64,000 bases of DNA from Escherichia phage P1, in the sequence record NC_005856.1; one strand, given 5' to 3'. Shown piece after piece: positions 31,660 to 37,841 of this stretch. The number at the start of each line of letters is the position of its first letter. The first letter of the stretch is position 1. Below the pieces are notes generated by a model. That model worked only from the letters and a program-made list of their open reading frames with translations, made no database searches and was not told the DNA's origin. The position numbers were made by a program, and so were the translations under genes.

Positions 31660-32220
31660 ATGCTAATAGGCTATGTACGCGTATCAACAAATGAACAAAA
31701 CACTGCTTTACAACGAAACGCTCTTGAAAGCGCAGGATGTGAGCTAATTTTTGAGGACAAGGCGAGCGGCAAAAAGGCTGAGCGCCCTGGGTTAAAAAAG
31801 GTACTCCGTATGCTTTCCAGAGGTGATACCCTGGTCGTATGGAAGTTAGACCGTCTTGGGCGCAGCATGCGTCACTTAGTTGTGCTGGTGGAAGAGCTGC
31901 GTGACAGAGGCATTAACTTCCGGAGTCTCACTGACTCCATCGACACCAGTACACCAATGGGGCGCTTTTTCTTTCACGTAATGGGGGCGCTGGCAGAAAT
32001 GGAACGTGAGCTTATCGTTGAACGTACACGCGCTGGACTTGATGCAGCTCGCGCAGAAGGTCGTATAGGTGGGCGTCGGCCTAAATACCAAGAAGAAACA
32101 TGGCAGCAAATGCGGCGATTGCTGGAGAAGGGCATCCCCCGTAAGCAGGTTGCAATCATCTATGATGTGGCTGTTTCCACGCTTTATAAGAAGTTTCCGG
32201 CGTCATCATTTCAATCCTAA
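31660..32220 (+). CDS. cin: Cin serine DNA invertase (186 aa)
   Basis: Protein MLIGYVRVSTNEQNTALQRNALESAGCELIFEDKASGKKAERPGLKKVLRMLSRGDTLVVWKLDRLGRSMRHLV... is a Hin/Gin/Cin-family resolvase-type invertase; abuts the invertible segment. Confidence 0.97.
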   Translation: MLIGYVRVSTNEQNTALQRNALESAGCELIFEDKASGKKAERPGLKKVLRMLSRGDTLVVWKLDRLGRSMRHLVVLVEELRDRGINFRSLTDSIDTSTPMGRFFFHVMGALAEMERELIVERTRAGLDAARAEGRIGGRRPKYQEETWQQMRRLLEKGIPRKQVAIIYDVAVSTLYKKFPASSFQS

Positions 32221-32237
32221 ACCTTGGTTTAAGAGAA
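32212..32237. other. cixL crossover site (26 bp, CAATCCTAAACCTTGGTTTAAGAGAA)
   Basis: Gix/hix-like dyad (half-sites around a central 2 bp) at the cin-proximal boundary of the inverted repeat. Confidence 0.7.
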
Positions 32238-32830
32238 CTCGGTACCAGCGGTGAAAAGATCCCCCTGTTGAGCACGGCTAACACATGGAGTGCACGCCAG
32301 ACTTTCAACGGCGGGATCACCGGGGCGCTGACAGGGAACGCCGATACCGCAACGAAATTGAAAACAGCCAGAAACATTAATGGCGTCAGGTTCGATGGTT
32401 CTGGTGACATTAATATCAATACTCTGGTATCGCGCGGTCGCGTAACGGCCCTGGAGGCGAATGCACAGGGAACATCCGGGATTCAGCTGTATGAGGCATA
32501 CAACAATGGCTACCCTTCCCCCTATGGCAATGTGCTTCACCTTAAAGGTGCCACCGCTGCTGGCGAAGGTGAGTTATTCATTGGCTGGAGTGGCACGAGC
32601 GGTGCCCATGCGCCCGTACATATCCGTTCGCGGCGGGATACTGATTCTGCCAACTGGTCTGAATGGGCGCAGGTCTATACGTCAAAAGATTCAATTCCCG
32701 GCGTCAATGCCAAAGGGGATCAGGATACCTCTGGTAATGCGGCTACAGCGACCAAGTTGCAGACAGCATGTACTATCAACGGTGTCTCGTTTGATGGTTC
32801 TAAAAATATTGAGCTAACGGCTGAAAATTT
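32226..32830. repeat. Left inverted repeat of the C-segment (~0.6 kb)
   Basis: Reverse complement of 35875-36480; identity decays near 32820-32835. Confidence 0.85.
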
Positions 32831-34874: not shown

Positions 34875-34877
34875 AAT

Positions 34878-37841
34878 TTACACCTGTGCGACGTTATACC
34901 ATATGCCATTGATGTATTTTTGTATCGGCCTGAAGATAGCGTCATCATCGCCATCAACTTCACCAATAATCCTTAATCCGGTAAGTGCGTGTCCGGCTCT
35001 TTCATAACGCCCTCCACGCGCCATCAATTGAACAACACGTGTGCCAAGTCGGACATCTCTCACATAGCGTGAGTCAAAATTGCCATAATTTCCGGGAATA
35101 ATTTGCGCACCGCAAAGCCAGTTACCGTTATTGTCCATGTACGCCTGACCATCGGTGCCATTGGCTGTCCTTGAGTTATTAATCATGTAGATGCCAAATT
35201 GCTTGTTCCCCAGTCCACCTATCATGAACTTTCGGTCGGCGTGATTCTGGCGAAGTAACGCCTGAGTGCTATCAGTGTTAACTATATTTTTCCCAAAGAT
35301 AGCGTTGTTATCGCGCATCTGAATCCACATACCATTACTGCTGTTAATAGCAAAACGGTCTGAAAGTGTCTCCCCTGAAACATTAAGGCCACGCCCCATC
35401 GAAACAGCGCCAGTAGCGTTATTAATCCATAATGGCCTTAATCCGTTATAAGTCCCCATGTTGTCACCGGAGTTTGTCAACATGAAGTATGTATTTGAAC
35501 CATCATTACGAATAAAGAATCCGTAATTACCATAAGCAATACGTAGGCCGTTTGCTGATTTTGATATGACTTCGCCATTTACAATGGCATTGACAAGAAC
35601 ATACAAAGCATCCCATTTAAGATTCATCAGGTCTTTTGTTGTGGTACTTTGTTTGCTTCTCCATTTGAAATATTCATTGCCGTTGTCGCCTGTTTCAAAC
35701 CACATGTATGAATCAGTATCGCTGTCGGCATCATTTTTAAAACCAATCTTCGCCCAGTCAGTATTCCGAATCCAGGCAAGGATTGAGTCGTTTTCAAAAG
35801 TAAGTCCACCGGACAAGGTATCGCCTGTCTTTTGAACCGCGTTATCAGCCTTGTTTACCGTTTCCTGTAGATTTAAATCTTCCGCCGTTAGCTCAATATT
35901 TTTAGAACCGTCAAACGAGACGCCGTTGATAGTACATGCTGTCTGCAACTTGGTCGCTGTAGCCGCATTACCAGAGGTATCCTGATCCCCTTTGGCATTG
36001 ACGCCGGGAATTGAATCTTTTGACGTATAGACCTGCGCCCATTCAGACCAGTTGGCAGAATCAGTATCCCGCCGCGAACGGATATGTACGGGCGCATGGG
36101 CACCGCTCGTGCCACTCCAGCCAATGAATAACTCACCTTCGCCAGCAGCGGTGGCACCTTTAAGGTGAAGCACATTGCCATAGGGGGAAGGGTAGCCATT
36201 GTTGTATGCCTCATACAGCTGAATCCCGGATGTTCCCTGTGCATTCGCCTCCAGGGCCGTTACGCGACCGCGCGATACCAGAGTATTGATATTAATGTCA
36301 CCAGAACCATCGAACCTGACGCCATTAATGTTTCTGGCTGTTTTCAATTTCGTTGCGGTATCGGCGTTCCCTGTCAGCGCCCCGGTGATCCCGCCGTTGA
36401 AAGTCTGGCGTGCACTCCATGTGTTAGCCGTGCTCAACAGGGGGATCTTTTCACCGCTGGTACCGAGTTCTCTTAAACCAAGGTATTGGATAACAGCAAG
36501 AATGCTTGTTTTGGCCAGAATATCGCGACCAACTGACGTTAAGTCAGTCTGAGAAACAGTGTCTGTACCGGTAAAGTACGGCAATTTATTTGCGCCTGTC
36601 GCAAGACCAGCAAGCGCGGTTAAAGTTGCATCAAGTGGCTGTTTCCCTGCCAGCGCATTTGTCATTGTTGTCGCAAAGTTCGGGTCATTGCCCAGTGCTG
36701 CTGCAAGCTCATACAGGGTATCAAGAGCTTCAGGTGATGAGCCGACCAATGCAGAGATAGCAGCCCGTACGTAAGCAGTCGTAGCGATCTGCGTATTGTT
36801 TGTGCCCTGTGCAGCCGTAGGCGCAGTAGGGACACCCGTTAATGCAGGGCTTGCCAAAGGCGCTTTGAGAGCCAAGGCATTGTTGATAGTTGTGCTGTAA
36901 TTCGGGTCGTTATTGATCGCAGCCGCTATTTCTTTCAGCGTATCCAGTGTGCCAGGCGCACCGTTGATAAGTGCAGTTATAGCTGCCTTAACAAAGGCTG
37001 TATTTGCGATCTGCGTGCTGTTTGTACCTTGCGCTGCCGTCGGCGCGGTTGGCGTTCCTGTCAGACTCGGGCTTTCTATTGGCGCTTTGGTATCAGCCAG
37101 ATCTTTTATAGACTTAACAGCTTTAGGGGTAGCCGCCATTGTTTCGCTGTCGCTGTTAGTTGCGCTACTGAGCTGAACTAATCCCTTTTGCGTTGTGCTT
37201 GCATCCTGTGCCGTATACTTGCTTTTCGCCAGATCGTAGGCTTTTTTAACTGCCAGCGAACTTGCAGCAACATCACTTCTGGTACTGGTTACAGAGTCTG
37301 AAATATCAATGCCGATCGAGCGGTTGATACGCTCGGATGTATCAATCATCTCCTGGGTAATGGCAGATACACTAGCAGGGATATTCACCGTACAAACAAG
37401 CAGCTCCCCATCTCCTAACTGATATGAATCGGTATAGGTTCTGGCAACAAATTCAGCCGCATGAATATGTGACGCGGTATTCACCTGGTAGGTATCTTCT
37501 CCAAGGAGGTATCTTCCCTTCAGCACAATTGCATATTTCTTGCCTGCACTAAGTGCAAGAGAAATATCCTTACGTTGCTGAATAGTTACCTGGTAAAATT
37601 CACCAATATCCACCGACGCCGCGCCTGCGGTTTTATCACCATCCACTGAGGTAATTAACAGGTTCATCCCACCGCCAGGCTTAGGTAAGAAACCGGCATA
37701 AAATCCCGGGTCAACAATCCCCCTGAATTTTCGGTTTAGCGCGGCTGACAGATATGGTTCGTGGTATTGCACATCGGCCACCAGAGCCAACGACTCGGAT
37801 GATGGGTAAGTAACCGATGTAACAACTGTAACGTCATTCAT
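34878..37841 (-). CDS. S: S tail fibre protein (constant N-terminal part outside, variable C-terminal part inside the C-segment); start taken at ATG 37841 (longest ORF to 37928)
   Basis: About 1000-aa ORF crossing cixR; ATG 37841 has AAGGAT upstream and avoids overlap with R; Gly/Ala/Thr-rich repeats (PTAPTAAQGTNSTQIA...) typical of fibre shafts. Confidence 0.8.
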   Translation of the reverse strand: MNDVTVVTSVTYPSSESLALVADVQYHEPYLSAALNRKFRGIVDPGFYAGFLPKPGGGMNLLITSVDGDKTAGAASVDIGEFYQVTIQQRKDISLALSAGKKYAIVLKGRYLLGEDTYQVNTASHIHAAEFVARTYTDSYQLGDGELLVCTVNIPASVSAITQEMIDTSERINRSIGIDISDSVTSTRSDVAASSLAVKKAYDLAKSKYTAQDASTTQKGLVQLSSATNSDSETMAATPKAVKSIKDLADTKAPIESPSLTGTPTAPTAAQGTNSTQIANTAFVKAAITALINGAPGTLDTLKEIAAAINNDPNYSTTINNALALKAPLASPALTGVPTAPTAAQGTNNTQIATTAYVRAAISALVGSSPEALDTLYELAAALGNDPNFATTMTNALAGKQPLDATLTALAGLATGANKLPYFTGTDTVSQTDLTSVGRDILAKTSILAVIQYLGLRELGTSGEKIPLLSTANTWSARQTFNGGITGALTGNADTATKLKTARNINGVRFDGSGDININTLVSRGRVTALEANAQGTSGIQLYEAYNNGYPSPYGNVLHLKGATAAGEGELFIGWSGTSGAHAPVHIRSRRDTDSANWSEWAQVYTSKDSIPGVNAKGDQDTSGNAATATKLQTACTINGVSFDGSKNIELTAEDLNLQETVNKADNAVQKTGDTLSGGLTFENDSILAWIRNTDWAKIGFKNDADSDTDSYMWFETGDNGNEYFKWRSKQSTTTKDLMNLKWDALYVLVNAIVNGEVISKSANGLRIAYGNYGFFIRNDGSNTYFMLTNSGDNMGTYNGLRPLWINNATGAVSMGRGLNVSGETLSDRFAINSSNGMWIQMRDNNAIFGKNIVNTDSTQALLRQNHADRKFMIGGLGNKQFGIYMINNSRTANGTDGQAYMDNNGNWLCGAQIIPGNYGNFDSRYVRDVRLGTRVVQLMARGGRYERAGHALTGLRIIGEVDGDDDAIFRPIQKYINGIWYNVAQV
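35875..36480. repeat. Right inverted repeat of the C-segment (~0.6 kb)
   Basis: Reverse complement of 32226-32830. Confidence 0.85.
36468..36493. other. cixR crossover site (26 bp, TTCTCTTAAACCAAGGTATTGGATAA)
   Basis: Dyad site at the distal boundary of the inverted repeat, within the S coding sequence. Confidence 0.7.

Follow-up and report, generated by a model that had tools for sequence, protein, structure and literature searches.

The Salmonella Hin/hix and e14 Pin systems belong to the serine-invertase family: their sites measure 26 bp and have a 2-bp core, and a Fis-dependent enhancer is located within the recombinase gene. The switch of bacteriophage P1 has long served as a model, both of how serine invertases work and of how phages change their host range, and has found a practical use in the engineered delivery of P1 to Shigella, as P1(S'). 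The P1 Cin recombinase and its C-segment (GenBank AF234173 / NC_005856) were reportedly described by Iida et al. in 1982, by Hiestand-Nauer and Iida in 1983 and by Lobocka et al. in 2004.

The 64-kb stretch of DNA analysed here (the window) is bacteriophage P1, with the same coordinates as GenBank AF234173: identity is 99.9% over 6601 nt, and 5 substitutions were found in 8501 nt. The annotation of AF234173 covers cin, cixL, cixR, the C-segment, Sv, Sv', U and U'. The P1 Cin/C-segment switch is already known and nothing in the locus is new. It is practically certain that the locus (Table 1) is the Cin/cix site-specific inversion switch of P1, which changes host range via the tail-fibre tip, and no sequence evidence against this reading was encountered. 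The analysis itself established the anatomy, showed that the frame is continuous whichever way the segment lies, assigned the recombinase to its family and found each orientation in nature; that Cin catalyses the inversion, that this depends on Fis and proceeds at a low rate, and which receptors are used were taken from the literature. The original prediction, made by a reader of the sequence alone, recovered to the base pair where the switch begins and ends, which way it lies and which half is expressed, its extent (31660-36493) running from the ATG of cin to the final position of the 26-bp cixR.

Table 1. Features of the P1 C-segment locus (coordinates of the window)
Feature	Coordinates	Strand	Evidence or remark
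Predicted sigma-70 promoters P2cin, P1cin	31538-31564, 31589-31621	+	AF234173 annotation, same coordinates
cin, serine DNA invertase, 186 aa	31660..32220	+	Pfam Resolvase 4.6e-51, HTH_7 1.9e-18
Annotated recombinational enhancer (sis), in 5' part of cin	31678..31749		AF234173
cixL, 26-bp imperfect dyad	32212..32237		Core TT at 32224-32225; crossover annotated between 32224 and 32225
Left arm of 0.6-kb inverted repeat	32214..32849		Repeat search
Invertible C-segment	32225..36480		4256 bp between crossover points
Sv', alternative C-terminal tail-fibre part	32226..33782	+	No start of its own; Pfam gp37_C
U', chaperone paired with S'	33785..34318	+	Pfam Caudo_TAP 1.3e-35
GC-rich hairpin between convergent U' and U	34322..34341	+	T-run after the hairpin on the + strand only
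U, tail-fibre assembly chaperone, expressed in present orientation	34347..34874	-	Pfam Caudo_TAP 1.1e-37
Sv, expressed variable C-terminal part of S	34878..36480	-	Pfam Gp34_trimer
Right arm of 0.6-kb inverted repeat	35856..36491		Repeat search
cixR, 26-bp imperfect dyad	36468..36493		Core AA at 36480-36481
Sc, constant N-terminal part of S	36481..37841	-	1361 nt; Pfam Phage_fiber_2 repeats
R, first gene of the R-S-U tail-fibre operon	37853..38287	-	Annotation
Late promoter LPs (-22 box AAGTTACTT and -10)	38318..38336	-	Annotation; sole promoter driving the S operon

The Gin/G-segment system of Mu is strongly similar to this locus. The non-repeated 3-kb core of the P1 segment (32866-35869) is about 91% identical to the G-segment at the DNA level, both systems keep a constant Sc outside the segment and Sv-U and Sv'-U' inside it, and both P1 tips have solved Mu homologues, the structures 5YVQ and 8JU3 matching these tips and U. 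However, Mu has 34-bp inverted repeats and a 3-kb segment, whereas the P1 segment is extended at either end by 0.6 kb of shared S coding sequence, which puts the crossover upstream of the variable part, at a distance of about 200 codons. Furthermore, gin is transcribed away from the segment and cin toward it, and Sc comprises about 169 codons in Mu versus 453 in P1. As in the tail-fibre host-range switches (Mu G, P1 C, e14 P), the constant 5' part and LPs lie outside the segment, and there are two in-frame 3' parts with their chaperones. Hin differs in that it flips a promoter instead of alternative 3' coding exons, and in that its recombinase gene is inside the invertible segment, while cin is outside. 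The multiple-inversion class (p15B Min, R64 shufflon) was also considered and discarded, more than two crossover sites being absent from the 64 kb. P7, D6 and the P1-like plasmids share the same cin, cix sites and tail-fibre operon, but the P7 segment is 3998 bp long, has the opposite relative orientation as deposited and carries U split into Ua and Ub. In many P1-like plasmids, cin is truncated or the segment altered (PMC6906374).

Cin displays the features of the Hin/Gin/Cin/Pin (Din) group of small serine recombinases (about 190 aa), i.e. an N-terminal resolvase domain and a C-terminal HTH. It is 76% identical to Mu Gin at the amino acid level, possesses Ser9 and aligns with the Gin structure 3UJ3 over Gin residues 1-182 (E = 8.6e-89). 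The cin reading frame terminates within the outer half-site of cixL, and inversion of the segment in silico leaves Cin unchanged. The two promoters annotated upstream of cin were absent from the output of a simple consensus scan. In sis, identity between cin and gin at third codon positions is 0.50-0.55 against 0.20-0.50 in the other cin windows, a modest excess that lies at the upper end of the cin range and is equalled near the cin 3' end; the conserved blocks are GTATCAACAAATGA and CAACGAAACGCTCTTG. On the basis of the annotation and of this modest synonymous-site conservation, sis is a candidate enhancer that may bind Fis.

The C-segment was predicted to follow cin, to measure 4.26 kb and to be bounded by 26-bp cix dyads and by inverted repeats of about 0.6 kb, all of which agrees with the present data. 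The inverted repeat extends over 636 nt with 11 mismatches (98% complementary). Its presence had been proposed as a check, and the 64-kb window contains no other inverted repeat of 40 nt or longer. The arms are 100% identical across 32221-32782 (562 nt); of the mismatches, two fall within the outer half-sites of cix and the other nine are confined to the innermost 67 nt. The repeats also generate mirror-image ORFs that, as had been pointed out, appear in the six-frame list: one pair of 118 aa each at 32461-32817(+) and 35888-36244(-), and another of 103 aa each at 32229-32540(-) and 36165-36476(+). The cixL sequence is CAATCCTAAACC TT GGTTTAAGAGAA and that of cixR is TTCTCTTAAACC AA GGTATTGGATAA. 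Each is an 8/12 dyad; their inner half-sites are identical, their 2-bp cores are complementary and the two sites are inverted. In a half-site scan of all 64 kb, only cixL and cixR reached 24/24, the next best score (17/24) corresponding to the level of shuffled sequence.

In the present orientation, S (37841..34878, minus strand) encodes 987 aa and passes the cixR crossover without any stop; as Sc is 1361 nt long, the crossover splits a codon after its second base. U begins 3 nt past the S stop, so that the predicted minus-strand arrangement, Sc joined in frame to Sv and followed by U, is indeed the one found. Sv matches the Mu S structure 5YVQ_A (E = 6e-193) and U matches the Mu U structure 5YVQ_B (E = 1.1e-109). 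No Pfam match was obtained for R. The annotated a/b repeats of Sc were not recovered from the DNA by Tandem Repeats Finder and were seen only in the protein, and an Rfam scan of the locus returned no RNA family.

On the other strand, Sv' matches the Mu S-S' structure 8JU3 (E = 2.9e-189). The U' ATG is located 2 nt past the Sv' stop, and U' and U are 56% identical. Both Sv' and U' had been predicted to be silent. This holds for Sv', which has no start, whose frame is interrupted by a stop located 14 codons before the crossover, cin being in another frame, and which has no late promoter: the -22 box was found only on the minus strand and none faces Sv' or U'. A sigma-70 scan for promoters facing these genes yielded no match on the + strand, and its total was below that of shuffled sequence. 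By contrast, the silence of U' is only inferred, because U' has its own ATG and cin is transcribed toward it with no terminator between them. From the sequence, a low-level leak of U' in the present orientation may be possible. As no terminator precedes the hairpin at 34322-34341, read-through from cin could make the off state leaky, with low U' in C(+) phages and low U in C(-) phages, but such leakage seems rather unlikely.

Inversion of the segment in silico, which had been put forward as a test of the switch, gives an uninterrupted S' of 972 aa that is the same as S through aa 654 and ends at original coordinate 33782; the alternative exon Sv' stays in frame over 519 codons and the junction between Sc and Sv' is continuous. 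The inverted arrangement exists outside the computer. Indeed, NZ_CP122833.1 is 100% identical to the in silico cin-IR-Sv junction over 1301 nt. Compared without gaps, its 13.3-kb locus shows 126 mismatches with the inverted window, only 4 of them within the segment, versus 2303 with the present orientation, and the 972-aa tail fibre annotated in this record differs from the predicted S' at only 6 residues. Among the P1-like plasmids of PLSDB, the present junction occurs in 57 records and the inverted junction in 29, and the P7 record also harbours the homologous segment flipped. The C-segment therefore occurs naturally in both orientations.

According to the mechanism proposed, Cin, which belongs to the Hin/Gin/Cin/Pin group of small serine recombinases, would pair the two inverted 26-bp cix sites and, from established knowledge of the family, would work with the Fis-bound enhancer in its own gene. 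Staggered cuts of 2 bp at the TT/AA cores, followed by rotation of the half-sites and religation, would flip the 4256-bp C-segment. LPs, R and Sc lie outside it. The variable half that faces Sc (Sv-U now, Sv'-U' once inverted) would be fused in frame and expressed, and the opposite half would be left devoid of a promoter and of a start codon (except for the ATG of U' itself). This would lead to two types of phages with different receptor-binding tips, each with its matched assembly chaperone.

The long arms raise the question of whether the segment is mainly flipped by RecA-dependent homologous recombination between the 0.6-kb repeats, with a minor role for Cin and cix. Their 562 nt of perfect identity would be an ample substrate, and the exchange point in NZ_CP122833.1 cannot be placed by sequence within the arms because these are identical there. 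However, this explanation would leave aside a dedicated serine invertase gene that abuts the segment and has its stop codon inside cixL, as well as a repeat whose ends coincide exactly with two 26-bp dyads that have matching 2-bp cores, an architecture of the Hin/Gin type. Moreover, Mu inverts its homologous 3-kb core with repeats of only 34 bp and, in the literature cited in PMC6906374 and 10.1101/2022.07.24.501295, the crossover is mapped to cix and cin is required. A predominant role of homologous recombination is thus very improbable.

Both remaining explanations deserve almost no credence. A multi-site shufflon, of the Min (p15B) or Rci (R64) type, would produce more than two tail-fibre variants; P1-like relatives do carry Min-type multiple-inversion regions, homology to p15B appears in the annotation and shufflon-like behaviour is mentioned in PMC6906374, but the 64-kb scan yields two cix sites, the next candidate (17/24) being at chance level, and there are only two sets of variable ORFs. 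An inverted duplication that never switches, or one produced by misassembly, would fit the fact that one sequence displays one orientation. Either is at odds with the presence of the repeat and of both orientations in independent records, with an intact invertase that keeps its catalytic Ser9 and with an alternative exon whose frame is exact across 519 codons.

The Cin/cix switch exchanges tips that are divergent, the non-repeated parts of S and S' showing only a weak match (35%) limited to their last 70 residues or so. P1(S) recognizes the LPS core of E. coli K-12, B and C, whereas P1(S') requires the O-antigen and targets Shigella flexneri 2a/5a and E. coli O3 (bioRxiv 10.1101/2022.07.24.501295; PMC10999674). 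The low similarity of the tips and their different published receptors are in line with the original prediction of a host-range switch operating through divergent Sv and Sv' tips. Compared with a second sequenced P1 strain, the locus shows only five substitutions, all of them nonsynonymous and within the Sv tip (S codons 859, 948, 961, 967 and 969). A natural plasmid and Mu share these five in a mosaic fashion, which would fit ongoing tip recombination with consequences for receptor binding, rather than laboratory mutations, a less ordinary and rather unlikely reading.

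The region 31400-38000 matches Escherichia phage P1 AF234173.1 with 99.9% identity over 100% of the query (megablast, phage collection), at identical coordinates, and a base-by-base comparison of 30800-39300 with this record gives 5 substitutions and 0 indels. From this match and the GenBank annotation, the locus is therefore identified as the classical Cin/C-segment switch of P1, a feature whose details have all been described before, down to the receptor specificities and the structures of close homologues. The observation made in the original prediction is thus confirmed and its interpretation supported. 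The boundaries proposed there correspond to the ATG of cin and to the final base of cixR, and the segment given as 4.26 kb measures 4256 bp from crossover to crossover.

Coordinates of the features of the C-segment locus
Feature	Position	Strand	Source or remark
cin	31660-32220	+	GenBank annotation AF234173
enhancer	31678-31749		GenBank annotation AF234173; inside cin
cixL	32212-32237		26-bp site
cixL crossover point	32224/32225		GenBank annotation AF234173
cixR	36468-36493		26-bp site
cixR crossover point	36480/36481		GenBank annotation AF234173
invertible C-segment	32225-36480		GenBank annotation AF234173
inverted repeat, arms	32214-32849 and 35856-36491		636 nt
Sv'			also annotated in AF234173 at its position here
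U'			also annotated in AF234173 at its position here
hairpin	34322-34341		between convergent U' and U
U			also annotated in AF234173 at its position here
S	37841 to 34878	-	also annotated in AF234173 at its position here
Sc repeats a0/a1/b1/b2	36642-37253		annotated; seen in translation and as two Phage_fiber_2 matches
late promoter LPs	38328 (-22 box)	-	also annotated in AF234173 at its position here
R			also annotated in AF234173 at its position here

The cix sites, delimited as 26-bp windows centred on the annotated crossovers, read CAATCCTAAACC-TT-GGTTTAAGAGAA (cixL) and TTCTCTTAAACC-AA-GGTATTGGATAA (cixR). Both are dyads, as had been claimed, imperfect at 8/12; their inner half-sites are identical, and the 2-bp cores complement each other, a prerequisite for inversion. 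When the entire window was scanned for the known half-sites, cixL and cixR (24/24) were recovered and no further cix site, the next-best candidate reaching 17/24, a score also attained by shuffled sequence. With only two sites, a multi-site shufflon can be rejected or is at best very unlikely. The predicted inverted repeats of about 0.6 kb are real, and no other pair reaching 40 nt occurs anywhere in the 64-kb window. Between 32221 and 32782 their arms do not differ at any position, and the 11 mismatches are confined to the outer cix half-sites (2) and the innermost 67 nt (9). Mirror-image ORFs, against which a warning had been issued, do occur as pairs in the mechanical ORF list. A RecA-driven inversion over these 0.6-kb repeats is very improbable, if not to be discarded, and the same verdict applies to a static duplication.

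Independent evidence that the segment flips is provided, by sequence comparison, by other replicons. The inverted junction predicted from the window was built as a 1301-nt sequence (3' end of cin followed by the repeat and unique Sv); it matches at 100% and in one piece the plasmid NZ_CP122833.1, from E. coli ETEC1730 isolated from pig faeces in Belgium. The 13.3-kb locus of this plasmid aligns without gaps to the in silico inverted window with 126 mismatches, just 4 of which fall within the segment, versus 2303 for the present orientation, and its annotated tail fibre of 972 aa is the predicted S' save for 6 residues. In the plasmid collection PLSDB, counting records with at least 80% junction coverage, the present junction is found in 57 and the inverted one in 29. 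The record of phage P7 (AF503408.1) has the flanks of P1 and the homologous segment, of 3998 bp (locus 2512-6509), in the opposite relative orientation. The expressed 'Sv' annotated in P7 is homologous to P1 Sv', and the U gene of P7 is divided in two, Ua and Ub.

The constant part of S is joined in frame to Sv, as predicted, in a protein of 987 aa that runs uninterrupted across cixR. As Sc is 1361 nt long, the crossover splits a codon. In silico inversion of the segment yields an S' of 972 aa with no frame break between Sc and Sv', stopping at original coordinate 33782, exactly the annotated Sv' end; S and S' share identical residues up to 654. The frame discontinuity that the original prediction had named as grounds for its refutation is thus absent. 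Cin (186 aa) is unaltered by the inversion because its reading frame ends 4 nt short of the crossover, at a stop codon in the outer half of cixL. U begins 3 nt past the S stop and U' 2 nt past that of Sv', spacings that suggest translational coupling.

The silence attributed to Sv' and U' in the present orientation holds for Sv', whose frame meets a stop 14 codons upstream of the crossover, cin being in a different frame; for U' we infer it, and read-through from cin could in principle reach this gene. The P1 late-promoter -22 box AAGTTACTT, searched across the window, occurs on the minus strand only, at 31222 (LPdar), 41412 and 54490 in addition to LPs, and no late promoter faces Sv'/U'. The GC-rich hairpin between U' and U (AAGGCCCG-ATAG-CGGGCCTT) has a T-run on the + strand only and is therefore asymmetric as an intrinsic terminator; in the present orientation, this predicted terminator would be better placed against transcription in the U' direction or cin read-through than against S-U transcripts.

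In the Hin/Gin/Cin/Pin family, invertase dimers and a Fis-bound enhancer form an invertasome. By this established family mechanism, Cin dimers at both cix sites would assemble with the Fis-bound enhancer, and Cin would cut with a 2-bp stagger, rotate subunits and religate. Support for the annotated enhancer is modest: it contains blocks conserved between cin and gin, and its synonymous-site identity to gin (0.50-0.55, versus 0.20-0.50 elsewhere in cin) is at the upper end of the range of the gene. The cix sites, their cores and the recombinase are observed here; for catalysis, Fis dependence and the low rate of inversion we rely on published work cited in 10.1101/2022.07.24.501295 and PMC6906374.

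Cin carries the Pfam domains Resolvase and HTH_7, is 76% identical to Mu Gin, retains Ser9 and aligns across residues 1-182 with the Gin structure 3UJ3 (E = 8.6e-89). S contains Phage_fiber_2 repeats and Gp34_trimer, Sv' contains gp37_C, and U and U' (56% identity) are Caudo_TAP chaperones. The expected divergence of the non-repeated parts of Sv and Sv' is borne out, since the tips (333 and 318 aa) have as sole match 35% across the last ~70 residues. Solved Mu homologues exist for both tips and U (5YVQ for S and U; 8JU3 for an S-S' fusion). The receptor of P1(S) is the LPS core of E. coli K-12/B/C (10.1101/2022.07.24.501295; PMC10999674). Sc also carries a tandem 74-aa protein repeat (S residues ~252-399; APIESPSLTGTPTAPTAAQGTN... 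and APLASPALTGVPTAPTAAQGTN...), which Tandem Repeats Finder does not detect at the DNA level.

Mu DNA matches P1 only in the non-repeated 3-kb core (32866-35869), and the Mu inverted repeats are 34 bp long instead of 0.6 kb. The two invertase genes also differ in direction relative to their segments: transcription of gin (817-1398 of the Mu record) leads away from the G-segment, that of cin towards the C-segment. As the enhancer occupies the 5' part of either gene, it is separated from cixL by ~480-545 bp in P1, and in Mu it is near the boundary of the G-segment. Residues 162-502 of Mu S align with 648-985 of P1 S (86%), which places the Mu crossover at the inner end of the repeat in P1 (~35868-35880 on the Sv side, ~32838-32850 on the Sv' side). 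On the Sv side, P1 has AATCTACAGGAA-ACGGTAAAC where the inner half of Mu gix is GGTTTACAGGAA-ACGGTAAAC (9/12, ACGGTAAAC being identical), and AATCTACAGGAA looks like a vestigial gix half-site. These data suggest that the C-segment is a G-segment of the Mu type that acquired new cix sites 0.6 kb further out, after which its original sites decayed.

The sole differences from AF234173 in 8.5 kb, at 34936, 34941, 34961, 34999 and 35267, all map to the receptor-binding tip of Sv, and each one is nonsynonymous (I/S, D/E, E/K, R/I and T/A at S codons 969, 967, 961, 948 and 859, respectively). NZ_CP122833.1 has the AF234173 state at three of these sites and the window state at two, and Mu carries the window state at four. 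Given this mosaic sharing, random mutation in the laboratory seems a poorer account of the substitutions than standing polymorphism of the tip or recombination tracts.

Elsewhere in the window, Rfam identifies the C4 antisense RNA and its a1/b1 target (48217-48269 and 48337-48422, + strand), which are part of the ImmI immunity region of P1. A family of direct repeats with ATGTGTGCTGGAGGGAA-type units is found at 61488-61658; given where they lie, they probably represent the iterons to which RepA binds in the P1 plasmid replicon.
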